A stretch of DNA of 64,000 nucleotides from Gammaproteobacteria bacterium (GCA_045107075.1 JBGCFV010000060.1:9317-73316), one strand, 5' to 3'; counted from the stretch's first letter, positions 9,828 to 29,047 are shown. Numbers and translations are program-made. The notes: a model not told the origin generated them from the sequence alone.

Positions 9828-11072
9828 ATGCACTTAGAGACGATAGAAAAGACGGATGACATACTCGTGCCCGGGGGCTGTGCTTTTTTGCACGGTACGG
9901 CTACCGAGCCGCGAGCGTTGGTTGAATACTGGTGTAACAGCCCCGAGAGCCTGAGTGGAGTCCGTTTACTGACGAGTTTTATTCCGGGTCTGAATACCGT
10001 CAATCTGGCAGGGCTGGCTCCCGACCAGCATGTTGAGACGTTTATGAATCAGCGTGAGTACGCGGTTTCTGAGCAGAGCAAGCAGCTTACCGCGTTGCGC
10101 TATTCGTACTCAAGAGTACGGCAACATCTTTGTGAGCTGGCTCGCCTGGATGTTGCGTTTGTTCAGCTAGCGCCGTTAAAAAACGGGCGTTATAGCACAG
10201 GCATTACTGGCGGGCTGATTCCAACGGCGATTGAAAAAGCGCATACGGTGTGCGGTATCGTCAATAATCAAATGCCGGTGCCGAAACGTAGTTACACCAT
10301 AGCCGCAAATCGTGTTGACTACACGATTAACGTTTCGCGACCGTTAATCGAGTTTGGCGCTGCAACCGGCGAGGTAAATGACGTTGCTCGTAAGGTGGCG
10401 GCTAACGTTTGTTCTCTAATTAACGACGGAGACACTCTGCAAGCTGGCATTGGCACTATTCCTACAGCGCTGTTTAGAATGTTGGAAGAGCGTCGAAATT
10501 TGAGAGTATTCAGTGGAATGGTCAGCGATTCTTTCGCCCAGCTGACAGCTTCGAGATCGTTAGATAAACGCGCTGAACACGTATTTGGCATGGCGCTTGG
10601 CAGCCAAAAATTCTACCAGTGGTTAAATGAAAGGGACGGATTTCGTGTTGCCGGGGTTGAAGAGACGCACAGTCGGGAACGAATATCGAATATCGACAAA
10701 TTTGTCGCTGTGAACAGCGCGCTGTCCGTTGGATTGGATGGCATAGTCAATGCGGAAAAGATCGGAAGTTATGCGGTAAGTGGGCCAGGAGGTCTCCCGG
10801 ATTTTGCGGCTGGAGCGACCGGATCGGATGGCGGTCGCAGCATTATCGCGTTGGCGTCAACCAATTCAAAAGGCACCGTATCGCGAATAACGCCGAGCAT
10901 TGATGATTTCGCTGCGAAAACAGTTCCTGCAGATCACGTGACGCACGTTGTTACTGAGCACGGCATTGCTGATCTGCGAAACGTTGCCGCTGATGAGCGA
11001 GCTAGCCGGCTGCTTGCAATTGCCGATCCGGCTTTTCGAAGCGACCTCAAGAAGGCGTTTGAGCCTGAGTGA
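9828..11072 (+). CDS. acetyl-CoA hydrolase/transferase family protein (4-hydroxybutyrate CoA-transferase-like)
   Basis: 414 aa with the conserved C-terminal region GSYAVSGPGGLPDFAAGA typical of this family. Confidence 0.75.
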   Translation: MHLETIEKTDDILVPGGCAFLHGTATEPRALVEYWCNSPESLSGVRLLTSFIPGLNTVNLAGLAPDQHVETFMNQREYAVSEQSKQLTALRYSYSRVRQHLCELARLDVAFVQLAPLKNGRYSTGITGGLIPTAIEKAHTVCGIVNNQMPVPKRSYTIAANRVDYTINVSRPLIEFGAATGEVNDVARKVAANVCSLINDGDTLQAGIGTIPTALFRMLEERRNLRVFSGMVSDSFAQLTASRSLDKRAEHVFGMALGSQKFYQWLNERDGFRVAGVEETHSRERISNIDKFVAVNSALSVGLDGIVNAEKIGSYAVSGPGGLPDFAAGATGSDGGRSIIALASTNSKGTVSRITPSIDDFAAKTVPADHVTHVVTEHGIADLRNVAADERASRLLAIADPAFRSDLKKAFEPE

Positions 11073-11081
11073 AAATTGGGT

Positions 11082-11726
11082 TTAGGATTTTGACAGAAGG
11101 TCGCGGATAGAATTCTCAAGAAACTCCAGCAGACGCTCAACTTGTTTTGTCTTCGGCGCGTGGTGTGTCAAGTAGCTGACAGCAACCCCTTCCATAATGT
11201 ACTCAGTCAGGTCGAGCGCAAGATCAAAGGCATCTTTTTTACCCTCCCATTCGGGAAAGAGTTTGAGCGCCTGTTCGTACCAGGCTTTGTCGAATTCGCG
11301 CTGTTTGGGGCGCAGTATCTTCTTCAATTCGTTGTCCGTTCTGGCGGCCACGGCCAATTCAAAGAACGCCACAAACATGGGGTGCTGCACGTGTTCCCAA
11401 TAAGATTCAACGGCAAGCTTCACTCGATCGGCGTCGGCCGGGAGTGCCTTGACGGATCTCCGGAAGGCACTCAGTCGCTTGGCGTGCAGGTGGTCGACGG
11501 CCGCTTTGACGATGTCAATCTTGGAGGGGAAATGATGAAGCATAGCCCCGCGGGACAGGCCTGCGATTTCGGAAATCGAGGTTGTTGTCGTTTTTGCATA
11601 GCCAAGTGAGACAAAGGCAGTAATGGCTGCTTCAACGATCTGGTTGCGAGTTGAGGCGCTTTTTTGCGCCTGCCAACTGTCAGGGTTCGCTGCAGACTTC
11701 TTTTTTTTAGGTGTCGCTTTTGCCAC
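11082..11726 (-). CDS. TetR/AcrR family transcriptional regulator
   Basis: The N-terminal HTH reads TRNQIVEAAITAFVSLGYAKTTTTSISEIAGLSRGAMLHHFPSK. Start is GTG at 11726. Confidence 0.85.
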   Translation of the reverse strand: MAKATPKKKKSAANPDSWQAQKSASTRNQIVEAAITAFVSLGYAKTTTTSISEIAGLSRGAMLHHFPSKIDIVKAAVDHLHAKRLSAFRRSVKALPADADRVKLAVESYWEHVQHPMFVAFFELAVAARTDNELKKILRPKQREFDKAWYEQALKLFPEWEGKKDAFDLALDLTEYIMEGVAVSYLTHHAPKTKQVERLLEFLENSIRDLLSKS

Positions 11727-11854
11727 GAAAATGGGCCTCGGCTATCAGATATAAGCGTCTACAGCATCGCTCTCAGTAAGAAAAAAGTCAAAGCAGATTG
11801 AAACCGGATGGCCTGACTGGTATACAAAGACTCTTTACTGGCGGGAGCAAACTG

Positions 11855-12604
11855 ATGGGACGGGTAGATGGGAAAGTCGTGATCATAACAGGTGCAGCCT
11901 CTGGATTGGGCCGGGCTGACGCACAATTTTTAGCCAAAGAAGGGGCTAAACTCGTACTGACCGATATCGATGACGATGCCGGTACAGCGTTGGTTGACGA
12001 GCTAACAAAAGGCGGTAGTGAGGCAATCTTTCTGAATCACGATGTGCGCGATGAAGCCAGGTGGGCCGAAGTTGTGGCGAAAACGGAAGAGCAGTACGGA
12101 CGTCTTGACGGTCTGGTCAATAACGCGGGTGTGGTGTTGATTGCAACGCCGGAAGATACCACCCTTGAACAGTTTCGTTTCGTAAACTCGGTAATGTCTG
12201 AAGGGGTTTTTCTCGGTTGTAAGGCGGCCTTGCCATTGCTACGTAAAAGCGGCGGCGGTTCAATTGTTAATATGTCTTCTGTCGCTTCTCATTTGGGATA
12301 TCCAGTGTTTTTTGCATACTCGGCCGCCAAAGGCGCTGTGCGCTCCATGACCAAATCGATCGCTGTCACGTGTCAGATGAACAAGGATAACGTGCGCTGT
12401 AACTCGATACACGCGGGCGCTATTGACACGCCTATGATCAAAACAGCAAATGCCGCTTTGGGTATTACACCTGATCCCGAAGACCCCGTTGGCATTGGTG
12501 AGCCCTCGGATGTAGCCAATATGATTTTGTACCTGATTTCTGATGAATCACGCTTTGTAAACGGTGCAGAGCTTGTAATCGATAACGCATTAACCGTGCA
12601 ATAG
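11855..12604 (+). CDS. SDR family oxidoreductase
   Basis: The Rossmann motif is VVIITGAASGLGRA. GGGAG RBS precedes ATG 11855. The track ORF from 11798 adds 19 aa with no support. Confidence 0.8.
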   Translation: MGRVDGKVVIITGAASGLGRADAQFLAKEGAKLVLTDIDDDAGTALVDELTKGGSEAIFLNHDVRDEARWAEVVAKTEEQYGRLDGLVNNAGVVLIATPEDTTLEQFRFVNSVMSEGVFLGCKAALPLLRKSGGGSIVNMSSVASHLGYPVFFAYSAAKGAVRSMTKSIAVTCQMNKDNVRCNSIHAGAIDTPMIKTANAALGITPDPEDPVGIGEPSDVANMILYLISDESRFVNGAELVIDNALTVQ

Positions 12605-12620: not shown

Positions 12621-13382
12621 ATGGATTTGGGACTACGCGACAAACGCGCAATAATTACGGGTGCTACGAAAGGCATTGGCCGTAAAATTCTGGAGCAACT
12701 CATAAGCGAAGGATGCACCGTTGCAACGTGCTCGCGTTCAATCGAAGACGTTGAAGACATTATTGAAAGGTGTTCCACACGCAAGGCTGAAGTCATTGGC
12801 GACGCTTGTGATGTAAAAGACAAAGAAGAATACGAGGCCTGGATTGACAACATGGCTGAGCGCATGGGCGGAGTCGATATTTTTATTCCGAACGTAAGCG
12901 CTGGTGGTGGTATGGACAGCGAGCGTAACTGGTGGAAAAATTTCGAGACCGACGTACTGGGAACTGTTCGCGGTTGCGAAGCGGTCGTTCCACACATGAA
13001 AGAAGGTGGAGGAGGTGCCATAACCATTATGGGCACGACGGCAGCCATTGAAACGTTTGGCGTTCCTCAAGCTTTTAACGCGATGAAAGCATCGCTTATT
13101 ACCTATGCAAAGCAGCTTTCACAGTTCGTGGGGCACGACAATATTCGCGTTAATGCGGTGTCCCCCGGGCCCATCGAGTTTCCGGGTGGTTCTTGGGAAA
13201 TGCTTAAGGACACCATGCCAAAATGGTATGCGAAAGTGGTACGAGATCACCCAACCGCTCGACTGGGTACTCCTGAAGAGGTGGCAAAATGCGTTGCGTT
13301 CTTGTCGAGCCCTGCAGCTCAGTGGGTTAACGGAAGTAACCTGATCGTTGACGGCGGCTTTACCAAGCGAGTGCAGTTTTAA
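12621..13382 (+). CDS. SDR family oxidoreductase
   Basis: The Rossmann motif is AIITGATKGIGRK. Stop TAA at 13380-13382 directly abuts GTG 13383 of the next gene. Confidence 0.8.
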   Translation: MDLGLRDKRAIITGATKGIGRKILEQLISEGCTVATCSRSIEDVEDIIERCSTRKAEVIGDACDVKDKEEYEAWIDNMAERMGGVDIFIPNVSAGGGMDSERNWWKNFETDVLGTVRGCEAVVPHMKEGGGGAITIMGTTAAIETFGVPQAFNAMKASLITYAKQLSQFVGHDNIRVNAVSPGPIEFPGGSWEMLKDTMPKWYAKVVRDHPTARLGTPEEVAKCVAFLSSPAAQWVNGSNLIVDGGFTKRVQF

Positions 13383-14687
13383 GTGTCAAACAAACCCTAC
13401 AAGAATTTCAAGCGTGTAACAGAGGCTGTTAAGAACGGCACGCCAATAGAGCACGCTCCTCCAGATGATTTTGGCTACGAGATGATTCCGAAGGAGCGCT
13501 ATATCTCGGCTGACTACATGGAGCGCGAATGGCACAAAATGTGGAGCAAGGTGTGGCTTCTTGGCGGCTTTGAAAGCGATATGGCGGAGCCGGGCGATTT
13601 CGTCTGTCTTGACGTAGGTCGTGAGTCAGTGATTCTTGTGCGCCAGCCAGACGGCGGTGTGAAAGCGTTTGCCAACGTGTGCATGCACCGTGGTAATCGA
13701 CTGGTCGACGAGGGGGCTGACAACGCCGAGTCCTTTAAGTGTTCCTATCACGGTTGGGAATACGGATTGAATGGGCGGTTTGTCAATATTCCCAATGGTG
13801 AATTATTTCCGCAGGGCAAACCCTGTAGCGGGCTCGCTGAATTACCTTGTAGAGTCTGGAATACGTTTGTCTGGTTCAGTCTTGATAAAAACGTCATGCC
13901 CTTTGAAGAGTATATGGCACCTTTGCTGGGTCACTTCGAGCCCTATCATTTCGAACGTATGACGCTCGTCAGAGATATCACTGTTGAATGGGATTGCAAC
14001 TGGAAAACATCGGTCGACGCTTTTAACGAAACCTACCATGTGGCGGCAACCCATCCGCAGTTACTGTGGTACCTGAATGAAATGGATGTTCAGATAGATT
14101 GCTACGACCGACACTCTCGTTATCTTGTTCCTTTCGGAATGACAAGTCCGCATATCGAGCGCATTCCTGAAATACCGCCACCTCTTAAAAGCATGTTGCA
14201 CGACGCGGGTCTCGACCCGGCCTCGTATCAGGGGCCTGTTGACGGTATCCGGGAGACGGTGCAAAAGCACCTGCGCGAAACGGCTAAAGAAACCGGACGG
14301 GATTTTTCTGACCTCAACGATGATCAATTGACCGATGATTTTAACTACCTGGTTTTTCCCAACCTGACTTTTAATACTCACGCCGATCACCTGATGCTGT
14401 TTCGGCACCGACCTCATCCGACGGACCCGGATCGCATGTTCTTCGACACCTGGACGTTTGAGTACATTGTTGACGAAGACGAGTTGCCGGAAGAGCGGCC
14501 GCGTCACCGTCAATACTCGGGCGGAGAAAAGTCGCTCGGTATGGTCATCGACCAGGATGGTGCCAATTTGCCGAAGGTGCAAAAAGGTATGCACAGTGCC
14601 TCTTACGACGGGCTTTGGCTTGGTGATCTTGAGGTACGGATTCGGCATTTCCACAAGACGCTGGAAAGCTATCTGGATGCCGAATAG
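13383..14687 (+). CDS. Rieske non-heme iron aromatic-ring-hydroxylating oxygenase, alpha subunit (alpha-only / phthalate-family type)
   Basis: The Rieske CxH...CxxH is CMHRGNRL...CSYHGWEY. The mononuclear Fe motif is DAFNETYHVAATH. GTG start is coupled to the upstream stop. No beta subunit follows. Confidence 0.8.
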   Translation: MSNKPYKNFKRVTEAVKNGTPIEHAPPDDFGYEMIPKERYISADYMEREWHKMWSKVWLLGGFESDMAEPGDFVCLDVGRESVILVRQPDGGVKAFANVCMHRGNRLVDEGADNAESFKCSYHGWEYGLNGRFVNIPNGELFPQGKPCSGLAELPCRVWNTFVWFSLDKNVMPFEEYMAPLLGHFEPYHFERMTLVRDITVEWDCNWKTSVDAFNETYHVAATHPQLLWYLNEMDVQIDCYDRHSRYLVPFGMTSPHIERIPEIPPPLKSMLHDAGLDPASYQGPVDGIRETVQKHLRETAKETGRDFSDLNDDQLTDDFNYLVFPNLTFNTHADHLMLFRHRPHPTDPDRMFFDTWTFEYIVDEDELPEERPRHRQYSGGEKSLGMVIDQDGANLPKVQKGMHSASYDGLWLGDLEVRIRHFHKTLESYLDAE

Positions 14688-14721: not shown

Positions 14722-14742
14722 AAAAACAGTCAGTACTGTTTC
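14722..14742. promoter_or_regulatory. palindromic operator-like site (AAACAGTC-AG-TACTGTTT), copy 1 of 4
   Basis: aaaaACAGTCagTACTGTTtc lies 90-110 bp upstream of the E1-alpha start. It shares AACAGTC-NN-GACTGTT half-sites with the sites at 20509, 23690 and 31759. Confidence 0.5.
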
Positions 14743-14829: not shown

Positions 14830-15792
14830 ATGAATCAAGAGCAGCTGCTGCAGGCCTATCGGCAAATGAAAACCATCCGGGAATTCGAAGAGCGTCTGCA
14901 TGTCGAGATTGCGACCGGTGCCATTCCCGGTTTCACCCATTTGTACAGCGGCCAGGAAGCGGTTGCAGTTGGCGTCTGCTTAAATCTCGACGTGGATGAT
15001 TACATTGTCAGTACTCACAGAGGTCACGGCCACTGTATTGCGAAAGGATGCGATGTCGTTGGCATGATGAAAGAAATCTACGGTCGTGCGGATGGCTTGT
15101 GCAAAGGTAAGGGCGGCGCAATGCACATCGCCGACTTCGAAAAAGGCATGCTCGGAGCGAACGCTATCGTTGGTGGCGGACCACCCATTGCAACTGGCGC
15201 GGCGATTGCCACCAAGCTCGATGGCAAAGGCAAGGTGACCGTCTCGTTCGGAGGCGATGGCAGTTCTAATCAAGGCACTGTCTTTGAAGCGATGAACCTG
15301 GCGGTAGTGTTAAAACTTCCCACTATTTTCGTTTACGAAGACAATGGCTATGGTGAGCACACCGGCGCGAGCTACGCCGTTGGCAGCGAAGACATCGCCG
15401 CACGTTCAGCTGCGTTTGGAATGCCAGCGCTTAAGGTAGATGGAAGCGATTTGTTTGCGGTTCATGAGGCCATGAGTGAACTGGTGGCGCGGGCCAGAAA
15501 CGGCGAAGGCCCGGCAACACTGGAATGCAAAACCACGCGATTCTACGGTCATTTCGAAGGTGATCCTCAGCGTTATCGGGCAAAAGACGAAGTGGCTGAA
15601 CATCGGGCAACGATGGACTGCCTGACTATTTTTAAACAGCGGGTCACAGAGTCTCAGCAGGTCGATGAGAATGCGTTAGCTCGTATAGATGCCGAAGTCA
15701 GCGCGTTAATTGAACACGCGGTGGAAGCGGCACAAAACGCGCCAGCGCCGACCTTGGAAGATCTGACTACTGACGTGTACGTGACGTATTAG
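14830..15792 (+). CDS. thiamine-diphosphate-dependent 2-oxoacid/acetoin dehydrogenase E1 component, alpha subunit
   Basis: MNQEQLLQAYRQMKTIREFEERLH plus the GDG(x)nN TPP motif FGGDGSSNQGTVFEAMN. AAGGA RBS precedes ATG 14830. The track ORF from 14701 has no support. Confidence 0.85.
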   Translation: MNQEQLLQAYRQMKTIREFEERLHVEIATGAIPGFTHLYSGQEAVAVGVCLNLDVDDYIVSTHRGHGHCIAKGCDVVGMMKEIYGRADGLCKGKGGAMHIADFEKGMLGANAIVGGGPPIATGAAIATKLDGKGKVTVSFGGDGSSNQGTVFEAMNLAVVLKLPTIFVYEDNGYGEHTGASYAVGSEDIAARSAAFGMPALKVDGSDLFAVHEAMSELVARARNGEGPATLECKTTRFYGHFEGDPQRYRAKDEVAEHRATMDCLTIFKQRVTESQQVDENALARIDAEVSALIEHAVEAAQNAPAPTLEDLTTDVYVTY

Positions 15793-15847: not shown

Positions 15848-16852
15848 ATGCCAGTTAAGTCTATGCGTGACGCATTAAACGAAACGTTGCATCAGGAGAT
15901 GGAACGAGACCCTAAGATAATTGTGCTTGGTGAGGACGTTGCAGGCGGACAGGGTGGTACCGGCGTCGAAGAAGCGGCCGGCGGCATCTTCGGTGTAACC
16001 AGTGGCCTTTACAAGAAGTTCGGTGCCGACCGCGTAATTGATACGCCGATCAGCGAATCCGCTATTGTAGGTGCCGCGGCTGGTGCCGCTCTTGCCGGGT
16101 ATCGGCCGGTTGCTGAGCTCATGTTTGCTGACTTCATCGGTGTTTCGATGGACCAGCTTTACAACCAGATTGCCAAGTTTCGCTATATGTTCGGTGGTAA
16201 AACAAAATGCCCGGCTATCATTCGTATGCCCACCGGTGCCGGCATGAACATGGGGGCGCAGCATTCACAAACAATCTACTCAATTGTGACCAGTGTTCCA
16301 GGCTTAAAGGTGGTGATACCTTCTAACGCCGCCGACGCAAAAGGCATGTTAACCACGGCGTTACGTGAAGACGACCCCGTCGTCTTTTTCGAACACAAGG
16401 CGCTGTACCCTAAAAAATGTGAAGTGCCAGACGGCGACTATCTCGTTCCATTCGGCGAGGCAGCGCTAGTACGAGAAGGCGATGATGTAACGGTAGTCGC
16501 CATAGCGCGGATGGTTCCTTTTGCAGAAAAGGCCATTGATAAACTGGCAAGTGACGGTATTACCTGTGACCTGGTTGACCCGCGCACAACGTCGCCGCTG
16601 GATCTGGAAACGATACTTGAAAGCCTTGAAAACACCGGGCGGCTTGTAGTCGTTGATGAATCAAATCCGCGCTGCAGTACCGCATCAGACATTGCCGGTC
16701 TGGTTGCCGTACACGGATTTCACTCGTTGAAAGCCCCCGTCGAAATGGTCACGGCACCGCATACACCGGTACCATTTGCGCGCGAGCTTGAGCGTGCTTA
16801 CGTACCTAGTCCTGTCGCTATCGAAGCGGCCATTCGCAAAGTTCTGGGTTAA
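15848..16852 (+). CDS. 2-oxoacid/acetoin dehydrogenase E1 component, beta subunit (transketolase-like)
   Basis: 334 aa with typical E1-beta motifs (IVLGEDV..., FGGKTKCPAIIRMPTGAG). Confidence 0.9.
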   Translation: MPVKSMRDALNETLHQEMERDPKIIVLGEDVAGGQGGTGVEEAAGGIFGVTSGLYKKFGADRVIDTPISESAIVGAAAGAALAGYRPVAELMFADFIGVSMDQLYNQIAKFRYMFGGKTKCPAIIRMPTGAGMNMGAQHSQTIYSIVTSVPGLKVVIPSNAADAKGMLTTALREDDPVVFFEHKALYPKKCEVPDGDYLVPFGEAALVREGDDVTVVAIARMVPFAEKAIDKLASDGITCDLVDPRTTSPLDLETILESLENTGRLVVVDESNPRCSTASDIAGLVAVHGFHSLKAPVEMVTAPHTPVPFARELERAYVPSPVAIEAAIRKVLG

Positions 16853-20147: not shown

Positions 20148-20157
20148 GGTGTCAGGC

Positions 20158-21078: not shown

Positions 21079-22440
21079 ATGTCCGTAAACTATAAAGCAC
21101 AGTGGCCCATGAACCTGGGCACAAGCGCACCGTCGCTGGAGGCCAAGCAGCCCGATATTGATAACGGGCTGGATGTGTATGACCCGTCTCGCTATTACTC
21201 TCGGGAGTTTATGGATAAAGAAACGCGAGACCTTTGGCCACGAGTCTGGCTTCTGGCTGGCGTTGCTTCCGATATTCCCGAGGACGGCGACTACTTTGTT
21301 TTTGAAGTCGGCGCGGAACAAATCATTGTGGTTCGGCAGGACGACGATTCCATCGCAGCCTTTTACAACAGCTGTCCGCACCGCGGCAATCGCGTGTGCT
21401 TGAATCACAGCGGTACCGCTGGCAGCTTTACGTGTCCGTTTCACGGTTGGCGTTTTGGTATTGATGGCAAGCTGCAAGAGATCAGTGACGAAAAGACCTT
21501 TGATCCTCGTGTGGTCGCTCACCGGCCAGGGCTAACAGAAGTGCGCTGCGACAGTGTTGGCGGAATTGTGTTTATTAATATGGACGGTAAGGCACCGCCG
21601 CTGGTTGAGTATCTTGGTTTGCCGCCCGGATACATCGAGCAATATGAAGTTGAAAATATGCGCGTTGTGCACCACGTCAAAAGTGCCTGGAAAGCCAATT
21701 GGAAAATTGGTGTAGACGCCTTCTACGAAACGTATCACTTGCCTCACGTACATCCGCAAACTCAAGGGGTGATGGAGGATTTTTCACAAAATGACTTGTA
21801 TCCGAATGGCGCGTCGAGAATGATCGTCCCAATTTGTGTCAAATCGCATCGTATGGAAGATCAAGACTCCGTAGATCCTTATCAGGCGGCCATGATGATT
21901 GAGGCGGGAATGGATCCTGCAACGTTCAGTGGTACGGCGGCCGACGTGCGTGCCGCGGTTCAAGTTGCCAAGCGGGAGAGGGCGAAGAAACTCGGTTTGA
22001 CCCACTACGATAACTTTACCGATGGACAGTTAACCGACAGCTGGGCGACAGGATTGTTTCCCAATGTGCAGATGGGTATGCATCCAGAAGGGGTATTTAT
22101 AATGCGGTTCTTGCCACACTCGCACGACCCGGAGCAGTTCTACTACGAAACCATGATTCTCTATCGTCCGGTTGATGATCCTGATTACAACGTTCCAGCC
22201 TGGATGGGATTGCCCGAAGGCACGGATTGTTCAGGTGAGACGCGGCCCGATGTTATTCATGTGCCCCTTGGCGAAAGCCCTAACCTGGGCGAGGTGCTGG
22301 ACCAGGACGCAGAGCTGCTCCCGGTCCAGCAGCAAGGCGTTCGTTCGCGCGGTTTTCGTGGCGCCCTGTTTGGGGACCAGGAGCAGCGCGTAAGGCACTT
22401 CGAAGCGGAGGTTGAGCGCTACGTTAATGGTGAGAAATAG
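21079..22440 (+). CDS. Rieske non-heme iron oxygenase alpha subunit (alpha-only type), paralog 2
   Basis: CPHRGNRV...CPFHGWRF and DAFYETYHLPHVH. AAGAGG RBS. Confidence 0.85.
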   Translation: MSVNYKAQWPMNLGTSAPSLEAKQPDIDNGLDVYDPSRYYSREFMDKETRDLWPRVWLLAGVASDIPEDGDYFVFEVGAEQIIVVRQDDDSIAAFYNSCPHRGNRVCLNHSGTAGSFTCPFHGWRFGIDGKLQEISDEKTFDPRVVAHRPGLTEVRCDSVGGIVFINMDGKAPPLVEYLGLPPGYIEQYEVENMRVVHHVKSAWKANWKIGVDAFYETYHLPHVHPQTQGVMEDFSQNDLYPNGASRMIVPICVKSHRMEDQDSVDPYQAAMMIEAGMDPATFSGTAADVRAAVQVAKRERAKKLGLTHYDNFTDGQLTDSWATGLFPNVQMGMHPEGVFIMRFLPHSHDPEQFYYETMILYRPVDDPDYNVPAWMGLPEGTDCSGETRPDVIHVPLGESPNLGEVLDQDAELLPVQQQGVRSRGFRGALFGDQEQRVRHFEAEVERYVNGEK

Positions 22441-22462: not shown

Positions 22463-23659
22463 TCAAGCGCGCTGGTTGAATCGTCGGCCTATCATTGCGC
22501 TTGTGATATTCGTCTTTTGAATGTCGATTGCGCCGCCGGCAATACCCCAGCCCCATGCGTCACGCATACGTCGCTCCATGCGGTATTCGCACGAGTATCC
22601 GTAGCCGCCCATAAGCTGTACTGCATTGCCGGTTACGGTACGAGCTATTTCGTTGGCGAAGCACTTTGCAATCGATGATTCCTGAATGCTTGGCATACCG
22701 TTTTCGGCATTTGAAATAGCACGATAAATAAGCAAGCGTGCTGCATCCACCTGCATTTGCATTTCGGCGAGACGCAATTGAACGGCTTGAAAGTCGACAA
22801 TGGGTTTGCCGAACTGTCTACGCTCTTGAACATAGGCGAGCGTTTCTTCAAGTGCGCCGGAGGCTTGGCCCAGCGCCATCGTTGCGTTGCCGCAGCGCTC
22901 GAGATCAAACGCCTGCATTAATTTGCCGAAGCCACCCGCATTGACAACCACGTTTTCGAGTGGCAGTTCGACGTTGTCAAAATAGACGTCGGAAGAGGGT
23001 ACGCCACGAAAACCCATTAGCTTTTCTTGCTTGCCAAACGTGATGCCGGGTGTTTCCTTGTCGACGAACACAGCGCCGATGCTTTGGGCTCCCGGTTTTT
23101 CAGCCATACGGCAATACACAAGATAACCGTCGGCATGTCCACCGCCTGAACACCAGCGCTTCATGCCATTAAGGCGCACACTGTCGCTACCGATTTCGGC
23201 GCGGGTGGTTAAGTCGGTCAAAGCCGAGCCTGCATTGGGCTCCGACATGGCGATGGCAACTACCATCTCGCCGCGACATACGGCGGGAATTACTCGTTGC
23301 TGCAACGCAGAGCTGCCGAAGTGTTCGATGGCTTTGACCGGGCCGGTGTAGGATTCGAATATCGGAAACGCAATGGCGGAGGATATTTTTGCAAATTCCT
23401 CCAAGACGATTAACGCATCGAGGCTGGTTTGACCCAGGCCGCCAAATTCTTCAGGAATGTTGATACCGAGAAATCCCATGTCGGCAAACTCGGCAATCAG
23501 TTCTTTCGTAGGTGGTTCCATTGACCGTTCTATTTCATCGGCAATGTCTGGGAGTTTCGACTGTGCGTAGGCGCGTGCTGCGTCGCGCATTTCCTGCTGT
23601 TCCGGCGTAAGGGAGAAATCCATCGAATGTGTTACCTTGTCGAGCGAAAAGAAAGTCAC
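22463..23659 (-). CDS. acyl-CoA dehydrogenase
   Basis: 398-aa ACAD fold; the C-terminus ...YEGTSEIQ-like region reads GGYGYSCEYRMERRMRDAWGW. Confidence 0.85.
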   Translation of the reverse strand: MTFFSLDKVTHSMDFSLTPEQQEMRDAARAYAQSKLPDIADEIERSMEPPTKELIAEFADMGFLGINIPEEFGGLGQTSLDALIVLEEFAKISSAIAFPIFESYTGPVKAIEHFGSSALQQRVIPAVCRGEMVVAIAMSEPNAGSALTDLTTRAEIGSDSVRLNGMKRWCSGGGHADGYLVYCRMAEKPGAQSIGAVFVDKETPGITFGKQEKLMGFRGVPSSDVYFDNVELPLENVVVNAGGFGKLMQAFDLERCGNATMALGQASGALEETLAYVQERRQFGKPIVDFQAVQLRLAEMQMQVDAARLLIYRAISNAENGMPSIQESSIAKCFANEIARTVTGNAVQLMGGYGYSCEYRMERRMRDAWGWGIAGGAIDIQKTNITSAMIGRRFNQRA

Positions 23660-23689: not shown

Positions 23690-23711
23690 AAAAACAGTCA
23701 AGACTGTTTAT
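23690..23711. promoter_or_regulatory. palindromic operator-like site (AAACAGTC-AA-GACTGTTT, perfect 18-bp palindrome), copy 3 of 4
   Basis: The site lies in the divergent promoter region between the ACAD gene (minus, about 40 bp) and Rieske oxygenase 3 (plus, about 85 bp). Confidence 0.5.
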
Positions 23712-23787: not shown

Positions 23788-25017
23788 ATGCTGGAGGGAT
23801 TAGTGGACAAGGCGACGATTGAACGGATTCTCTCAGGAATGAAGTTTGAGGCTGAGCGAGAGAGCCCTCCAGAAAACTTTCCGCGAATGCCCGATATTCC
23901 GGGCGGGCGGTACGTCGACCCGGCTTTCAATACATTAGAACATAAGCATTTGTGGCACAAAGCCTGGCTGTACGCCGCGCATATTGACGAGTTTCCTAAA
24001 GTCGGCAGTTTCAAAATGTTTACTCGAACGGGTGCCCCGATTTTCCTGATTCGAGGAAAAGACGATGAGATTCGCGCGTTTTACAACACCTGCCAACACC
24101 GTGGTGGTCCCTTGGTCAAGACGGACGCCGGTTCCGTTCGCAATCTTGTTTGCGGCTATCATGGTTGGTCCTATGATTTTACCGGCAAGCTGATAAACCT
24201 GCGTGATAAACGGGACTTTGTCGACCTAGATATGAACTGTCGTTCTCTCAAGGGTATCCGCTGTGAACGTTTTGGCAACTGGATCTTTGTGAGTGAAGAC
24301 CGTGATGCCGCACCTCTCCTTGAATCTTTAGGTCCGATTCCCAGTCATCTTGAGCCGTTTCAACTTGAGTCTCTCAGGCTCGTGGATTCCGCGTCTTATA
24401 CCGTCGACTGCAATGTCAAAATAATTCAAGACGCGTTTCTCGAGGTTTACCACCTCAAGTCGATACACCTGAAAACAGTTGATCGTTTTCTTGACCACAG
24501 AGGTACTACCATCTCTCTGTACGAAGGTGGGCATTCACTTATGGTCACTCCCAATCGTCGTGAAGGCTGGGTCGACCCGGGCACAATTGGTATGCCGGAC
24601 ACAGAGACAGTTCCCGATATCGTTCGCAATAATAATTTTTCCTACAATATGTACCCGAACATCGTGAGCCCAGTGGCTCATAACGGCATGCCCTTTATCG
24701 TGTTTTGGCCAAAGACTCACAACACGATGGTATTGGATGTCCATTGGTTTGCTCCAGACTGGGGCGGCGGAGAAAGAAACCCGCTGTGGGATAAACGAAT
24801 TGAAAATTTCGATCGAATTCTTGAAGAAGACACGCAGTTTGCACCTCAAATTCAGGCGTCGGTCGAGTCGCCTGGTTTTAAAGGGGTGCCACTGAACTAT
24901 CAGGAGAGACGCATCTATCACTGGCACGAAGAGCTTGATCGTCGCATCGGATCAGACAATATTAAACCCGATTTACGTGTAGATCCTGTGCTAAAAGATT
25001 TCGTGAGTCGCACTTAG
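23788..25017 (+). CDS. Rieske non-heme iron oxygenase alpha subunit (alpha-only type), paralog 3
   Basis: CQHRGGPL...CGYHGWSY and DAFLEVYHLKSIH. An alternative GTG start at 23803 follows a GGAGGG RBS. Confidence 0.8.
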   Translation: MLEGLVDKATIERILSGMKFEAERESPPENFPRMPDIPGGRYVDPAFNTLEHKHLWHKAWLYAAHIDEFPKVGSFKMFTRTGAPIFLIRGKDDEIRAFYNTCQHRGGPLVKTDAGSVRNLVCGYHGWSYDFTGKLINLRDKRDFVDLDMNCRSLKGIRCERFGNWIFVSEDRDAAPLLESLGPIPSHLEPFQLESLRLVDSASYTVDCNVKIIQDAFLEVYHLKSIHLKTVDRFLDHRGTTISLYEGGHSLMVTPNRREGWVDPGTIGMPDTETVPDIVRNNNFSYNMYPNIVSPVAHNGMPFIVFWPKTHNTMVLDVHWFAPDWGGGERNPLWDKRIENFDRILEEDTQFAPQIQASVESPGFKGVPLNYQERRIYHWHEELDRRIGSDNIKPDLRVDPVLKDFVSRT

Positions 25018-26444
25018 TGATAGGCATTGCAAGAATAGGCGTCTACTTACCGCAGTTACGACTGCGTCGTGACGCCATTGCATCAGCTCACGCATGGGGC
25101 GTACCCGCTTTAAAAGCACATGCGAAAGGCACGGTCGCTACCAGCAACTGGGATGAAGATGCGGTCACTATGGCGCACGAGGCGGCAAGGGAGATAGTCG
25201 TTACATCCGAATCCGACATCTCGGGCTTAAGCTTTTGCTCTACAAGTATGCCTTTTGCTGATCGTTCTCATGCAACCTTGCTGTGCGAAGCGCTAGGCTT
25301 GCAAACGAATATTCCCGTGCAAGACATAGCCGCTTCTCAGCGCGCCGGTACCTCAACTTTAATGGCTGCACTTCAAGGCCAAAGATCAGGCGAGCTGGTG
25401 ATTGCTTCTGAGCGACGTAAAGCACAGCCTGCCAGTGTGCAAGAAATGACGTATGGAGATGCGGCGGTCGCGCTTACCACAGGCGTCAGTAATCTGCTGG
25501 CAGAGTTCGTCGCGGCTACGTCTGTCAATGCTGATTTTGTTGATCACTATCGCTCCGCAGACAGCCAGTTTGACTACGCGTTCGAGCCGCGTTGGGTGCG
25601 CGATGAAGGCCAGCTTAAGCTCATAGCGGAAGCCATCGAAAGTGTGCTTGCAAAAGCAAAATGCGGAGCGTTGAGTGTCAATAGGCTGGTGATCAATGCG
25701 CCAACACGGGTAGCTGCGAAGCTGGCTAAAGCGACCGGTCTTGATAACGCCAACAGTGCATCAGTTATCGCCCAGCAAATCGGTCTGTCCGGCTGCGCAT
25801 CTCCACTAATGGCTTTGGCTGAATCCCTCGAGACCGCGCGTGAGGGCCAGTTAGTACTGTGTATCGGATTTGGGCAGGGTGCTGACGCGATGTTATTCCG
25901 TGCGGGACCAGCTGCCGGTAAACCTGAGGCTTTTTCTGCCGCGCTTTCCAAGGGCGTCGAAGATACGAATTATCTCAGATTTTTAAGTAATCGGAATTTG
26001 ATTGACATGGACTGGGGCATGCGAGCTGAACGGGATGTGCGCACCGCGCAGAGTGCGTACTATCGCGAACGAAATCAGATCACGGCGATGGTTGGCGGGC
26101 TGTGTTCGGCGTGTGGAACAGTGCAGTTTCCAAGAACCAAAAGTTGTGTCAATCCAGCGTGTCGTGAGCTGGGCGAGCAAGGTGAGTATTCGTTCGCAGG
26201 TAAACATGGTCGAGTTAAATCGTTTACCGAAGACTGGCAGGCGTACTCGCCTTCGCCGCCACTGACGTATGGCAACATCGAATTCGAAGGCGGGGCCAAC
26301 ATCATGATGCAGTTTACCGATACAAGAGCAGGAGATACGCAAATTGGTACTGAGGTTTCAATGCACTTTCGAATTAAAGACATTGACCGGCACCGAAATT
26401 TTCGCCGTTATTTTTGGAAAGCTATAGCGGCAGAGGCACTATAG
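25017..26444 (+). CDS. fusion protein: HMG-CoA-synthase-like thiolase-fold domain + DUF35 (Zn-ribbon/OB-fold) domain
   Basis: The N-terminal ~310 aa have the HMGCS/KAS-III-like fold (IGIARIGVYLPQLRL...). The C-terminal part has a 4-Cys zinc ribbon, CSACGTVQF...CVNPAC, followed by an OB-fold. This is characteristic of DUF35 proteins that partner SCP-x thiolases. GTG start overlaps the upstream stop (TAGTG). Confidence 0.7.
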   Translation: MIGIARIGVYLPQLRLRRDAIASAHAWGVPALKAHAKGTVATSNWDEDAVTMAHEAAREIVVTSESDISGLSFCSTSMPFADRSHATLLCEALGLQTNIPVQDIAASQRAGTSTLMAALQGQRSGELVIASERRKAQPASVQEMTYGDAAVALTTGVSNLLAEFVAATSVNADFVDHYRSADSQFDYAFEPRWVRDEGQLKLIAEAIESVLAKAKCGALSVNRLVINAPTRVAAKLAKATGLDNANSASVIAQQIGLSGCASPLMALAESLETAREGQLVLCIGFGQGADAMLFRAGPAAGKPEAFSAALSKGVEDTNYLRFLSNRNLIDMDWGMRAERDVRTAQSAYYRERNQITAMVGGLCSACGTVQFPRTKSCVNPACRELGEQGEYSFAGKHGRVKSFTEDWQAYSPSPPLTYGNIEFEGGANIMMQFTDTRAGDTQIGTEVSMHFRIKDIDRHRNFRRYFWKAIAAEAL

Positions 26445-27640
26445 TGGCCGAGGGGATTCGGGACAAAGTCGCTATTCTTGGCATGGGTTGCTCCCGTTTT
26501 GGCGAGCGTTGGGATATGAGTGCCGCAGACTTAATGGTAGAAGCGTTCACTGAGTGCGTTAGTGATGCCGGTATTGAGCGTGACGACATTGAAGCGGCAT
26601 GGCTCGGCGTTTTTTTTGACGAACAAAGTATCGGCAAGTCAGCGATACCGCTAAGTAACGCACTTCGACTCAATAATATTCCGGTTACGCGGGTAGAGAA
26701 TTTGTGCGCAACCGGCACTGAATCCTTTCGCGGAGCCGTGTACGCAGTTGCATCAGGGGCGTGCGATATTGCGCTGGCCATGGGTGTTGAGAAACTTAAA
26801 GATACCGGGTTCGCCGGTTTGCCCGAACGCACCAACGGCCCTTTCGACGATATGTGGTTACCTAATTCAACGGCTCCCGGTGCGTTCGCCCAGTTGGCGA
26901 GCGCCTACGGTCACCGACACGGTATTGATGTTTCGGACCTAAAGCGAGCCATGGCCCACGTGTCGGTTAAAAGTCATCGCAACGGTTTGCTGAACGACAA
27001 GGCGCACCTGCGCCGGGAAATAACCATGGAGCAAGTGCTTAATGCTCCGCCAGTAGCCTATCCGTTGGGCGTTCTGGATTGCTGTGGAGTAAGTGACGGT
27101 GCGGCGTGCGCTATTGTGGCCCGACCCGAGATTGCCCGTCAGCTCGGCAAGATCGACCTGGTAAGTGTAAAAGCACTTCAGCTGTCAATTAGTAATGGAG
27201 TTGAGTCTTCCCATAGCTCTTGGGACGGCTCTTACACGGCGACAACTCAACGGGCCTCGCGCAAGGCCTATGAAGAGGCTGGTATCAGCAACCCGGCCAG
27301 CGATCTGGATATGATTGAAGTGCATGATTGCTTTTCAATTACAGAACTGGTTTTGATGGAAGATCTCGGATTGTCCAAAGCAGGTCGGGCACCAGCGGAT
27401 GTTCTGGATGGGAGGTTTGACGCGGGAGGCGATATTCCGTGTCAGATTGACGGCGGTCTAAAGTGTTTTGGTCATCCTATAGGTGCCTCGGGCCTCAGAA
27501 TGATTTACGAAATGTACTTGCAGCTATCGGGCAGAGCAGGGCCCAGACAGCTTGAGAACCCTGAGTTTGGACTAACTCATAATCTTGGCGGAATCCCGAA
27601 TCGAAACGTCGCCAGCATTTCTATAATTGGAAGAATGTAA
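26444..27640 (+). CDS. thiolase-like SCP-x / lipid-transfer-protein-type 3-ketoacyl-CoA thiolase
   Basis: (M)AEGIRDKVAILGMGCSRFGERW... is the typical N-terminus of the non-specific lipid-transfer/SCP-x thiolase family. GTG start overlaps the upstream stop (TAGTG) and has an AGAGG RBS. Confidence 0.7.
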   Translation: MAEGIRDKVAILGMGCSRFGERWDMSAADLMVEAFTECVSDAGIERDDIEAAWLGVFFDEQSIGKSAIPLSNALRLNNIPVTRVENLCATGTESFRGAVYAVASGACDIALAMGVEKLKDTGFAGLPERTNGPFDDMWLPNSTAPGAFAQLASAYGHRHGIDVSDLKRAMAHVSVKSHRNGLLNDKAHLRREITMEQVLNAPPVAYPLGVLDCCGVSDGAACAIVARPEIARQLGKIDLVSVKALQLSISNGVESSHSSWDGSYTATTQRASRKAYEEAGISNPASDLDMIEVHDCFSITELVLMEDLGLSKAGRAPADVLDGRFDAGGDIPCQIDGGLKCFGHPIGASGLRMIYEMYLQLSGRAGPRQLENPEFGLTHNLGGIPNRNVASISIIGRM

Positions 27641-28513
27641 GTGACCATAAATAAACAATCAAACTTCGGGTTCAGCGACGAAGAGCTTAGCCAATTACCT
27701 TTGGTTTTTGCCGACAATTTGTTTGAAGGCAAGGTGTTTTTAATATCGGGTGGCGGTAGCGGGATAGGTAAGGCAACTGCGTTCGTCCTCACCCGGCTAG
27801 GTGCGAAAGTTATGATTTGCGGCCGCACTGAAGCAAAGCTCGTGGCGACGGCAAACAGTATTAAGAAAATGCTGGGTAAAGATATCGCTTATCACGCTAT
27901 GACTATTCGTGATCCGGAACAAGTTGACGCACTTATGGCCGATACGTGGGAGCGCTTTGGTGGCCTGGACGTTCTGGTTAATAACGGCGGCGGGCAGTTT
28001 CCGCAGGACGCAATTGATTTTAGTGTCAAAGGTTGGAATGCCGTCATTGATACCAATTTAAACGGCACGTGGTACATGATGCAAAGCGCCGCACAGCGAT
28101 GGCGCGATGAAAAAAAACCCGGGAACATTATTAACGTAGTTGCGGTTATCAACAGAGGGATGCCGCAAGTTGCACATACCTGTGCAGCTCGTGCCGGAGT
28201 CGTCTATTTATCCAAGACGGTTTCTACTGAATGGGCGCCTCTGAAAATCAGAGTGAACTGCGTGGCGCCGGGCTCTATCAGTACCGAAGGACTTGACGTA
28301 TACGAACCGGAAGTGGCCAGAATGTTTCAGTATGCGAACCCGATGCACGAGCTCGGTGACGTAGCGGATATATCTCAAGCTATTGCCTATCTTGCCGCAC
28401 CATCAGGCAAGTTCATTACTGGCGAAGTACTGACCGTAGACGGGGGTGCACAGCAATTCGGAGTGAATTGGTCTGCTGGCATACCGGACTATTTCAAAGT
28501 GAACGGGCGGTAG
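27641..28513 (+). CDS. SDR family oxidoreductase (2,4-dienoyl-CoA/enoyl reductase-like)
   Basis: GKVFLISGGGSGIGKA. GTG start is immediately after the upstream TAA. Confidence 0.75.
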   Translation: MTINKQSNFGFSDEELSQLPLVFADNLFEGKVFLISGGGSGIGKATAFVLTRLGAKVMICGRTEAKLVATANSIKKMLGKDIAYHAMTIRDPEQVDALMADTWERFGGLDVLVNNGGGQFPQDAIDFSVKGWNAVIDTNLNGTWYMMQSAAQRWRDEKKPGNIINVVAVINRGMPQVAHTCAARAGVVYLSKTVSTEWAPLKIRVNCVAPGSISTEGLDVYEPEVARMFQYANPMHELGDVADISQAIAYLAAPSGKFITGEVLTVDGGAQQFGVNWSAGIPDYFKVNGR

Positions 28514-28516
28514 ACT

Positions 28517-29047
28517 ATGAGGCTCCCAACGGGTAGAACACCGTTTCAACAAGCGTGGGTGGTTAACGACATAGAGCAAACGGCCCGGAGTTGGTCGGCC
28601 AGCTTAAACATAGGCCCATTTTATATCGCTGAATACACTCCGGACATGTTCGAATTCATTGACTACCGTGGGGGAGCGGGCAGCTTGCATATGAAAACGG
28701 CGATTGCGTACTCTGGCGACTCTCAAATTGAGTTGGTCGAGCCACTGGGGACCGCACCCAGTATCTATCGCGATGTGTATGAAAATGGACAGACCGGATT
28801 TCATCATCTGTGTTTCTGGAGTGACGAGTTTGAGCGTGATCTCGAACATCATGTGAGCCAGGGCCACGTCATTGCCAATGAGGGGAAAATGAAACGGGGG
28901 CCGCGATTTGCATACGTTGACGCAACGGAGACGTTGAACTGTGTTATCGAGGTGCTCGAGAGGCGACCGGCGCTCGTTGCGTTGTTTGACGAATGGCGCG
29001 AAGCCGCGAAAAGTTGGGACGGGAAGCGACCCGTAGTGAAGTTATAA
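28517..29047 (+). CDS. VOC (glyoxalase/bleomycin-resistance/extradiol dioxygenase) family protein
   Basis: 176 aa. A paired beta-alpha-beta-beta-beta module pattern is typical of the VOC superfamily. Confidence 0.55.
   Translation: MRLPTGRTPFQQAWVVNDIEQTARSWSASLNIGPFYIAEYTPDMFEFIDYRGGAGSLHMKTAIAYSGDSQIELVEPLGTAPSIYRDVYENGQTGFHHLCFWSDEFERDLEHHVSQGHVIANEGKMKRGPRFAYVDATETLNCVIEVLERRPALVALFDEWREAAKSWDGKRPVVKL

Follow-up and report, generated by a model that had tools for sequence, protein, structure and literature searches.

What does a bacterium degrade with three Rieske oxygenases, a set of acyl-CoA enzymes, the E1 and E2 components of a pyruvate dehydrogenase (PDH)/acetoin-type complex and a thiolase whose gene overlaps that of a fusion protein? 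The question is raised by a 64-kb stretch of DNA from a Gammaproteobacteria bacterium (GCA_045107075.1 JBGCFV010000060.1:9317-73316), hereafter the window, on which all positions are counted and of which an earlier note, made from the sequence, had described 9828-29047 as an uncharacterised catabolic island. Pfam and NCBIfam profile scans of the open reading frames (ORFs) in the window reproduced all of the domain assignments in the gene content listed there, each in its place. These genes probably belong to a regulon of approximately 25 genes (8383-34293), chromosomal and divided among at least seven transcription units, which would encode one TetR-controlled, CoA-thioester-dependent oxidative catabolic pathway for an organic acid or alcohol. 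The cluster is built from known enzyme types, as a broadly conserved, CoA-dependent Rieske-oxygenase catabolic cluster with a DUF35-associated thiolase; new here is an operator-like palindrome shared by four of its operons and the promoters of TetR orthologues. That no textbook pathway matches was borne out by literature searches (DUF35/Rieske/thiolase, ThuA/Rieske/PQQ and Rieske/acetoin dehydrogenase), in which no described pathway of this composition was found. At the equivalog level, no NCBIfam model was matched by the three oxygenases, the CoA ligase, the acyl-CoA dehydrogenase (ACAD), the three short-chain dehydrogenases/reductases (SDRs), E1alpha or E2, the thiolase model PRK06157 being the only equivalog model above its cutoff.

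The unit proved wider than first described, on both sides, being joined by a MaoC hydratase, a glutathione S-transferase (GST)-like protein, a ThuA-like protein, a lipoprotein with haem-c and pyrroloquinoline quinone (PQQ)-like domains, and a TonB-dependent receptor. The receptor and the cytochrome c/PQQ protein, which the earlier note had placed downstream, are present and are probably part of the unit (they are syntenic in L006 and L003, with an operator-like site in their shared promoter region); the ThuA-like gene, which it omitted, lies between these and the VOC gene. The term ‘island’ does not hold, as GC content stays uniform at 0.49-0.56 from flank to flank, no mobility genes lie in the flanks and the unit has no tRNA, integrase or transposase at its borders; this is therefore a chromosomal cluster rather than a compositional island, and no compositional sign of horizontal acquisition was found in the window. 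Pyruvate carboxylase lies upstream and glycogen genes downstream, and a hairpin followed by a T-run, 3′ of the receptor gene, marks the right end. As noted earlier, the 64 kb contain no gene for an oxygenase reductase or a lipoamide dehydrogenase; they also lack one for a Rieske beta subunit.

The same genes are grouped in many unrelated genomes (loci compared are labelled L001-L093); the grouping is not chance. Four modules could be recognised, namely A (TetR / SDR1-SDR2-RO1), B (E1alpha-E1beta-E2), C (ABM-ligase-ABM / ferredoxin-RO2) and D (ACAD / RO3-fusion-thiolase-SDR3, followed by a VOC or CMD gene), with MaoC-GST, CoA-transferase, ThuA, TonB receptor and PQQ-like genes as further members, and these recur in reshuffled order in Gammaproteobacteria, Caulobacterales, Rhodobiaceae, Azospirillaceae and Sphingomonadaceae. 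L006, in which the fusion protein is 49% identical to that of the window, has a nearly complete set in the window's order, including the receptor, PQQ-like, VOC and ThuA genes, while L092 and L093 are compact versions that lack module B and RO1 and include MaoC-GST, TetR and the SDRs. The cluster is also present in Caulobacterales (L015) and Rhodobiaceae (L017), and, on replicons of cultured strains, in Niveispirillum cyanobacteriorum TH16 (L088; plasmid NZ_CP025614.1, 113-124 kb), from cyanobacterial aggregates, and Sphingobium sp. RAC03 (L089; pBSY17_1, 849-881 kb), from an algal phycosphere, where DUF35 is a separate gene. The members outside modules A-D follow the same pattern: GST-MaoC orthologues are found inside the cluster in L003, L012-L015, L092 and L093, and ThuA, PQQ-like lipoprotein and receptor genes recur across L003, L006, L012-L014, L088 and L089.

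An 18-bp palindrome, AAACAGTC-N2-GACTGTTT, occurs 5′ of four operons in the window. In the divergent ABM2/ferredoxin and ACAD/RO3 promoter regions it is the centre of near-identical 27-bp stretches with A-rich and T-rich flanks. Across the window there were five matches (three strong, one weaker and one stray, outside the unit) against 0.26 expected, and 0/100 shuffled sequences gave as many as five. The three strong sites have counterparts elsewhere: O1 upstream of E1alpha in L006 (position 72) and L009 (position 2000); O2 in the same position in L006, L008, L009, L010, L092 and L093; and O3 in the same position in L001, L002, L006, L012, L092 and L093. The weaker site, O4, has three mismatches to a perfect palindrome and is hence less certain. 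Overall, the motif was present at orthologous intergenic positions in 13 loci (L001, L002, L006, L008-L010, L012-L015, L018, L092 and L093), and its density was 7.0 per 100 kb in orthologous loci compared with 1.3 per 100 kb in loci having only distant oxygenase homologues. A scan for promoter and terminator consensus sequences gave fewer matches in the window than in shuffled sequence, and was uninformative.

Because their promoters share this conserved motif, at least the E1/E2, ligase/RO2 and ACAD/RO3-thiolase units appear, at the level of sequence, to be co-regulated, and the receptor unit probably is too. Co-regulation, on which the earlier note had made its proposal depend, is thus argued for by a shared and conserved putative operator. 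The protein acting on the palindrome is most likely the TetR-family regulator of the cluster, as a repressor: TetR orthologues (45-60% identity) are encoded in L015, L089, L092 and L093, and in these same four loci the motif lies in the SDR/TetR intergenic region, in the regulators' own promoter regions, as expected for an autoregulated TetR.

Not all of the evidence favours a single pathway, and it is unlikely, although conceivable, that several independent catabolic operons (for example acetoin/PDH-like, ligase/oxygenase and beta-oxidation sets) have become neighbours by chance or under loose selection. L001 and L002 carry module D only, and L008-L010 carry module C only, with or without module B; since the modules also occur apart, they could serve related but separable pathways. 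E1/E2 and RO1 are missing from L088, L092 and L093. In the window, no clear operator was found 5′ of three transcription units (SDR1-SDR2-RO1, CoA-transferase and GST-MaoC), and a regulator other than this TetR could bind the putative operator. The CoA-transferase is not conserved, the family-I enzyme of the window having no orthologue in the other loci, which have a family-III enzyme (CoA_transf_3) at the equivalent place, so that CoA-transferase function seems to be conserved via non-orthologous genes. The family-III enzyme is SUGCT-like, which points to dicarboxylates; as an alpha-methylacyl-CoA racemase it would have supported 2-methyl-branched substrates, but it matched SUGCT at E 1e-56 against E 1e-18 for AMACR, and that assignment was rejected. 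Against independent operons, the same modules re-associate in varied order across five proteobacterial groups, and the conserved palindrome is common to the E1/E2, ligase/RO2, ACAD/RO3-thiolase and receptor units.

The features of the unit are collected in Table 1. Several starts given by the ORF lister were too far upstream, and were revised from orthologue lengths and start codons.

Table 1. Genes, operator-like sites and hairpins of the cluster, in window order (RO, Rieske oxygenase; ThDP, thiamine diphosphate; HMGS, HMG-CoA synthase).
Feature	Position	Strand	Probable start, where revised	Domains and remarks
MaoC-like (R)-specific enoyl-CoA hydratase	8383-8835	-		Pfam MaoC_dehydratas
GST-like protein, 304 aa	8842-9756	-		Pfam GST_N_3, GST_C; upstream of MaoC, same operon
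CoA-transferase, acetyl-CoA hydrolase/transferase family	9828-11072	+		Pfam PF13336
TetR-family regulator	11082-11726	-		Pfam TetR_N
SDR1	11798-12604	+	ATG 11855	Pfam adh_short
SDR2	12621-13382	+		Pfam adh_short_C2
RO1, Rieske alpha subunit	13383-14687	+		PF00355, PF00848 (Ring_hydroxyl_A)
O1, operator-like palindrome AAACAGTCAGTACTGTTT	14724-14741	.		RO1-E1alpha intergenic, upstream of E1alpha
E1alpha, ThDP-dependent, PDH/acetoin type	14830-15792	+	ATG 14830 (ORF lister 14701)	Pfam E1_dh
E1beta	15848-16852	+		Pfam Transket_pyr, Transketolase_C
E2 acyltransferase	16858-18078	+		Pfam lipoyl, E3-binding and catalytic domains
Hairpin	18089-18114			3′ of E2
ABM1, ABM-domain protein 1	18187-18474	-	18474	Pfam ABM
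AMP-forming acyl-CoA ligase	18492-20210	-	GTG 20147	Pfam AMP-binding, AMP-binding_C
ABM2, ABM-domain protein 2	20158-20451	-		Pfam ABM
O2, operator-like palindrome AAACAGTCAGAACTGTTT	20511-20528	.		Divergent ABM2/ferredoxin promoter region
Rieske-type [2Fe-2S] ferredoxin	20585-20902	+		Pfam Rieske; CxH..CxxH present
RO2, Rieske alpha subunit	21079-22440	+		Pfam Rieske, PF00848
ACAD, short/medium-chain type	22463-23659	-		Four Pfam ACAD domains
O3, operator-like palindrome AAACAGTCAAGACTGTTT	23692-23709	.		ACAD/RO3 promoter region; perfect inverted repeat
RO3, Rieske alpha subunit	23803-25017	+	GTG 23803 (ORF lister 23788)	Pfam Rieske, PF00848
HMGS-like::DUF35 fusion	25017-26444	+		Pfam ACP_syn_III_C, zf-ChsH2, OB_ChsH2_C
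SCP2-type thiolase	26414-27640	+	GTG 26444, overlapping the fusion's stop	NCBIfam PRK06157
SDR3	27641-28513	+		Pfam adh_short
Single-domain VOC protein (Glyoxalase_4)	28517-29047	+		Pfam
ThuA-like protein, no signal peptide	29096-29833	-		Pfam ThuA
Lipoprotein, N-terminal haem-c domain and PQQ-like beta-propeller	29833-31704	-		Pfam; lipobox LWGC; haem motif CAVCH
O4, weaker operator-like site AAACAGTCCGACTTGTTT	31761-31778	.		PQQ-like/TonB receptor intergenic; flanking A and T tracts
TonB-dependent outer-membrane receptor	31900-34293	+	ATG 31900 (ORF lister 31726)	Pfam Plug, TonB_dep_Rec; signal peptide
Hairpin and T-run	34362-34393			3′ of TonB receptor gene

The three Rieske alpha subunits, RO1, RO2 and RO3, share 26-36% identity with one another, and all three look functional, their CxH...CxxH cluster and ExYHx4H iron motifs being intact. 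RO1 adjoins E1alpha in L006 and L055, RO2 has orthologues (55-83% identity) in more than 12 loci from Gamma- and Alphaproteobacteria, and RO3 is represented by more than 120 orthologue clusters at ≥60% identity (in Woeseiaceae, Steroidobacteraceae, Parvularculaceae, Sphingomicrobium and others). KshA and phthalate types, which the earlier note had included among the candidates, can be set aside because the catalytic domain of each of the three is PF00848, not a KshA_C or VanA_C-type domain. Matches to solved structures were confined to the Rieske domain and the start of the catalytic domain (E 1e-24 to 1e-30), with aromatic dioxygenase alpha subunits, CntA and Stc2 scoring about equally at 17-20% identity, and none of the three could be placed in a characterised clade whose substrate is known. 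All-against-all clustering of neighbouring loci revealed no conserved reductase or beta subunit; the extra families that recurred were CMD, GNAT and PhzF-like, plus unannotated ones.

A separate observation concerns ThuA-like genes, which, at 44-49% identity to that of the window, repeatedly adjoin distant Rieske alpha subunits (30-35% identity) in Halieaceae, Pseudomonadales and other gammaproteobacterial metagenome-assembled genomes (L023, L024, L028, L030, L035, L036, L055 and L068), suggesting that ThuA and a Rieske oxygenase may form an uncharacterised functional pairing.

An aromatic acid route, either like that for ibuprofen (Ipf) or for a lignin-derived compound, would begin with CoA activation, followed by Rieske attack on the ring of the CoA ester and removal of the acyl-CoA side chain by thiolase and DUF35 protein. 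The Ipf pathway has the same enzyme combination, of CoA ligase, Rieske dioxygenase, SCPx thiolase and DUF35 protein (PMC10004696); the ferredoxin here is nearest HcaC, RO1 and RO2 are nearest aromatic dioxygenase alpha subunits, and there are GSTs (three in L003) and SDRs, which together make up the lignin beta-etherase toolkit. The oxygenase matches, however, span the N-terminal half only, at the E values given above, the GST scores only 26.7 bits against LigG, and the loci read as gene tables include no beta subunit, two-domain extradiol or intradiol dioxygenase, meta-cleavage hydrolase or aldolase. The ibuprofen upper pathway of Sphingomonas Ibu-2 (IpfABDEFHI), compared by gene content rather than by sequence, resembles the window in combining a CoA ligase with an SCPx-type thiolase, DUF35 and a Rieske oxygenase whose presumed substrate is a CoA ester, but has an alpha-plus-beta dioxygenase with its own reductase and catechol meta-cleavage, whereas the window has alpha subunits only, no reductase and no ring-cleavage genes. 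Membership of the Ipf type was therefore rejected for want of beta subunit and reductase, and an aromatic route as a whole is distinctly unlikely.

Very unlikely, too, is a quaternary-ammonium or N-methylated substrate (of betaine type, or derived from betaine lipids) attacked by Rieske enzymes like GbcA, CntA and Stc2. GbcA is the best NCBIfam match of all three oxygenases, all of which are alpha-only, and Stc2 (3VCA) and CntA (6Y8J), likewise alpha-only with a PF00848 domain, are the best neighbours of RO3 in sequence as well as the nearest solved structures to its AlphaFold (AF2) model (pLDDT 89.9, TM-score ~0.7). Yet the GbcA scores (113-134 bits, 113 for RO3) are far under the 670-bit cutoff and cover only the N-terminal, Rieske half, and identity of RO3 to Stc2 and CntA is 18-20%, with terephthalate dioxygenase close behind in the structure comparison. 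Further, there is no partner reductase, betaine transporter, gene for C1 or formaldehyde handling or other amine-handling context, and the other gene products are suited to acyl-CoA esters and to a substrate of the size that TonB receptors import. Membership of the GbcA/CntA/Stc2 group was rejected on the sub-cutoff scores and the lack of an adjacent reductase in the window.

The genes for RO3, the HMGS-like::DUF35 fusion and the thiolase are linked by tight spacing and overlapping stop and start codons; RO3 is translationally coupled to the fusion in this way, and the overlap at 26444 suggests only coupled expression of fusion and thiolase. The fusion protein is identical to one from an NCBI metagenome-assembled genome (locus tag AB8G18_16515). 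The N-terminal domain of the fusion (residues 2-303) has PhlA as its closest solved structure, followed by archaeal HMG-CoA synthase 6ESQ, and residues 353-457 match 6esq_E, the DUF35 protein of the archaeal complex. In alignment, the HMGS tetrad E82/C114/H238/N270 of 6esq_I is replaced by T/S/N/L, and this loss is family-wide: 119/120 homologues have Thr at the Glu position and only 1/120 keeps the Cys, while the four zinc-ribbon cysteines of the DUF35 part are invariant in all 120. The HMGS domain is thus predicted to be catalytically dead, and the fusion is a probable scaffold for the thiolase. The latter has intact motifs (NLCATG, Cys98; HDCF, 304; GHPIG, 353) and scores 667 bits against the PRK06157 cutoff of 403, although the name of that model, ‘acetyl-CoA acetyltransferase’, is generic. 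Among solved structures it is most closely related to the archaeal ACAT 6esq_A (E 9e-59).

Of the described systems, the closest is PfACAT/HMGS-DUF35 of Pseudomonas fluorescens (Nat Commun, January 2026), in which the fused HMGS is inactive and the enzyme performs acetoacetyl-CoA thiolysis and no condensation (PMC12960953). The pair in the window shares with it the HMGS-DUF35 fusion and the lost E-C-H-N tetrad (PMC12960953), an adjacent thiolase with Cys, HDxF and GHx motifs, and the absence of nearby polyketide synthase (PKS) or non-ribosomal peptide synthetase (NRPS) genes; it matches that kind in architecture and motifs as compared with the published description, and by analogy its activity would be thiolysis-only, within a complex. 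In the same study, 1,001 such ACAT/HMGS-DUF35 loci were counted without biosynthetic neighbours, and were interpreted as still awaiting recruitment into any defined pathway (PMC12960953). Unlike those loci as described, the pair here and in more than ten related loci shares its operon, which has a conserved putative operator, with Rieske oxygenase and SDR genes. The earlier note had turned for comparison to BbsAB and Ltp2/ChsH2, which are less apt, the dead HMGS domain and the Cys, HDCF and GHP motifs of the thiolase bringing the pair closer to PfACAT/HMGS-DUF35. A BbsAB-type benzoylsuccinyl-CoA thiolase was rejected because the thiolase scores 146 bits against the NCBIfam BbsB cutoff of 750, and because 7pxp_C (E 1e-44) is a weaker match than 6esq_A. 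The archaeal thiolase/HMGS/DUF35 mevalonate complex has the same three-part architecture and supplies that best solved relative, but here the HMGS-like domain has lost its active site and is joined to DUF35 in one protein, and the context is catabolic; a complex of that type with a competent HMG-CoA synthase was ruled out by the replaced tetrad and by scores of 131, 79 and 37.5 bits against NCBIfam HMGS cutoffs of 244, 353 and 360.

Degradation of a steroid or bile acid, at its side chain or rings, is highly improbable. DUF35, SCP2-type thiolase and MaoC together resemble steroid side-chain enzymes, there are weak matches to FadD3, 7alpha-HSDH and IpdE2 models, and related fusion/thiolase pairs occur on megaplasmids of Sphingobium strains isolated from tomato; the tomatine/Sphingobium paper, however, is silent on these genes. 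Neither the window nor the related clusters have KshA, KstD, Hsa/Tes or Ipd homologues, steroid hallmark genes are absent from the window, and the oxygenases have the PF00848 domain instead of the KshA C-terminal domain. Steroid Ltp2/Sal with ChsH2/Shy was rejected as a candidate, as DUF35 is here fused to a dead HMGS-like domain, not to a MaoC hydratase, and since the nucleophilic Cys and HDCF are kept, with GHP, the enzyme is by its sequence a thiolase rather than an aldolase of the Ltp2/Sal type. The sphingomonad bile-salt side-chain cluster, which has a KshA-like Rieske enzyme and no thiolases, is a different system. Least credible is a biosynthetic role for the cluster, with the HMGS/ACAT/DUF35 complex as a C-acyltransferase like PhlACB or MucABC, for although PhlA is nearest the N-terminal domain of the fusion among solved structures and ABM proteins are common in polyketide tailoring, the thiolase retains the HDxF motif (as HDCF) lost in these Friedel-Crafts C-acetyltransferases, no PKS, NRPS or terpene synthase is present in the window, and the TonB receptor, ACAD, PDH-like complex and CoA ligase point to catabolism.

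The megaplasmid pairs merit separate mention. One 35-kb region, L090 (352-386 kb on plasmid AP027312.1 of Sphingobium sp. TomMM7A), encodes not only a fusion/thiolase pair (39% and 64% identity) but also MaoC, a CoA-ester lyase, electron-transfer flavoprotein and several ACADs, together with a BKACE enzyme, an alkene reductase, a Rieske alpha subunit and E1 of the acetoin type. This region, found in the ‘Tom’ strain series, is a different but related toolkit for which no published function was found.

The E1 and E2 genes resemble AcoABC and mitochondrial-type PDH in having a heterotetramer-type ThDP-dependent E1 and a lipoyl E2 with intact motifs (the lipoyl lysine in TDK, and DHRAFDG). Acetoin dehydrogenases belong to the PDH-type group. 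E1alpha is nearest the mitochondrial-type PDH E1alpha (E 4e-63) and far from that of branched-chain 2-oxoacid dehydrogenase (E 1e-27), and E1beta passes its NCBIfam model (PRK09212, 324.5 bits, cutoff 321). Unlike either system, the set has no E3 gene in the window and is co-located, and putatively co-regulated, with a Rieske oxygenase; E1alpha (331 bits, PDH cutoff 394) and E2 (277 bits, cutoff 445) fall short of their models, and E2 matches the AcoC model PRK14875 over its lipoyl part only (119 bits, cutoff 307). E1/E2 and RO1 form an accessory module, being absent from the most compact versions of the cluster.

In Actinomycetota metagenome-assembled genomes, including Acidimicrobiia, very distant RO1/RO2 homologues (24-30% identity) lie beside E1alpha-E1beta and ACAD genes (L047, L052, L059, L062, L063, L070, L076-L080, L083, L084 and L086), and on account of these loci the association of Rieske oxygenases with PDH-like E1 may be older and broader than the cluster.

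Most of the remaining genes were also retained in related loci. MaoC orthologues (53-61% identity) adjoin RO2 or GST in L012-L014, L092 and L093, and GST orthologues (46-56%) lie within the cluster in L003, L012, L015, L092 and L093; the best solved relatives of the GST are themselves uncharacterised (4kf9 and 3ic8). SDR1 orthologues (59-65%) stand beside TetR in L015, L092 and L093, and those of SDR2 were found in L015 (64%) and L092 (56%). The ABM-ligase-ABM trio is kept in L003, L006, L008-L010, L015, L088, L092 and L093, the ligase having orthologues of 56-80% identity and no NCBIfam model above cutoff. The ferredoxin, the sole electron carrier in the unit, scores 84.5 bits against an HcaC-like model with a cutoff of 113. 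ACAD orthologues (73-83%) are divergent from RO3 or from the CoA-transferase in L001-L003, L006, L092 and L093, and the CoA-transferase of the window scores 153 bits, under cutoff, against butyryl-CoA:acetate CoA-transferase. SDR3, with 188 bits, under cutoff, against 2,4-dienoyl-CoA reductase, is probably a 3-hydroxyacyl-CoA dehydrogenase or an enoyl/dienoyl-CoA reductase; its orthologue lies 3′ of the thiolase in every locus that covers this flank (L001-L003, L006, L007, L012, L088, L092 and L093), except that none is found by the distant pair in L004. The VOC gene (weak methylmalonyl-CoA epimerase match, 23.5 bits) also occurs in L006, L015, L089, L092 and L093, and ThuA recurs in L006, L055, L089 and L092 and by distant Rieske oxygenases in Halieaceae loci. 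The lipoprotein, which has only remote similarity to the quinohaemoprotein alcohol dehydrogenase 1yiq (E 3e-18), has orthologues in L006 (50%) and L017 (41%), and receptor orthologues (42-47%) lie in or beside the cluster in L003, L006, L012-L014 and L088.

For the single, TetR-controlled pathway that we favour, a sequence of reactions can be proposed. Uptake would be via the TonB-dependent receptor, and the periplasmic haem-c/PQQ-like lipoprotein may oxidise the substrate first. Activation to a CoA thioester would follow, by the AMP-forming ligase, flanked by its two ABM proteins, or by the CoA-transferase. The three alpha-only Rieske monooxygenases, fed by the one Rieske ferredoxin and a reductase presumably encoded elsewhere, would then hydroxylate unactivated carbons, and SDR1 and SDR2 would oxidise the new hydroxyls to ketones. 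The accessory E1alpha-beta/E2 complex, with an E3 likewise encoded elsewhere, could cut a 2-oxo or alpha-hydroxy-ketone unit to acyl-CoA, and ACAD, MaoC hydratase, SDR3 and SCP2-type thiolase, the last held by the dead HMGS::DUF35 scaffold, would carry out beta-oxidative shortening. This order is inferred from enzyme families and operon structure.

As to the substrate, a methyl-branched or alicyclic (terpenoid-like) acid fits best, as a guess and not a result. 2-Methyl-branched acyl-CoAs are typically processed by a MaoC-type hydratase, an SDR and an SCP2-type thiolase, and it is because this set is present that such a substrate is favoured, and because there are no aromatic ring-cleavage genes and the oxygenases are alpha-only that it is preferred to an aromatic one. 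The same three enzyme types are shared with peroxisomal branched-chain beta-oxidation (MFE-2 hydratase-2/SDR with SCPx thiolase), from which, as from the steroid side-chain enzymes, the cluster differs in that no racemase was found, the family-III CoA-transferase in related loci being SUGCT-like, and in having a thiolase rather than an aldolase. That the nearest solved structures to RO3 are quaternary-ammonium monooxygenases is a poor fit to the branched-acid idea, with which the SUGCT-like transferase of related loci is not easily squared either. Tentatively, and with the odds against its holding in all its parts, a fuller reading can be offered, in which a methyl-branched or alicyclic skeleton acquires alpha-hydroxy-ketone or 2-oxo groups through the action of alpha-only Rieske monooxygenases and SDRs, and E1E2 and the scaffolded SCP2 thiolase then cut these groups to acyl-CoAs. 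The candidate substrates would be isoprenoid-derived or carboxyl-rich alicyclic compounds, and the regulon would be the missing physiological role of the approximately 1,000 orphan bacterial ACAT/HMGS-DUF35 loci, and an undescribed aerobic strategy for C-C cleavage.

The rest of the window holds other features. Directly 3′ of the receptor's terminator is an operon for DUF3604, a peptidyl-prolyl isomerase (Rotamase_2) and HupE/UreJ_2 (34423-38756, +), and a DUF3604 gene is also found at the edge of the related cluster in L003. A complete and ordinary glycogen operon (MalQ, GlgC, GlgA, GlgB, GlgP and GlgX-like; 38938-50312, +), unrelated to the regulon, is followed by a conserved, poorly understood triad (50543-54057, +) of a putative ATP-dependent zinc protease (PF05618), an inactive transglutaminase fused to 7 transmembrane helices (PF14400/PF14402) and a sugar-transfer-associated ATP-grasp protein (PF14397). 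An ABC ATPase gene (54477-55433) precedes one for a 1193-aa protein with ABC-2 membrane domains and an M1 peptidase domain (55447-59028, +). Three tandem tRNAs, an RtcB RNA ligase and a small HNH endonuclease are encoded at 62196-62596 (-), with 62672-63868 (-) and 59788-60357 (-), the tRNAs immediately downstream of the RtcB gene and near the HNH gene. By ARAGORN they are Asn (anticodon ATT, which is unusual), Met-CAT and Lys-CTT, and Rfam confirms all three (52-62 bits); the HNH protein has only weak PtuB/Cas9-HNH matches (PADLOC).

Were the modules independent, the cluster would be merely another set of unassigned catabolic operons. If they do form one pathway, a thiolase complex described as an evolutionary intermediate without a pathway gains a conserved catabolic home, and an oxygenase/thiolase toolkit that recurs among Proteobacteria of marine, freshwater, phycosphere and soil habitats becomes a directly testable orphan pathway, present in the cultured Niveispirillum cyanobacteriorum TH16 and Sphingobium sp. 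RAC03. The conserved TetR operator would then be a handle on the inducer, and thereby on the substrate, which may be an abundant, poorly understood class of natural compound.

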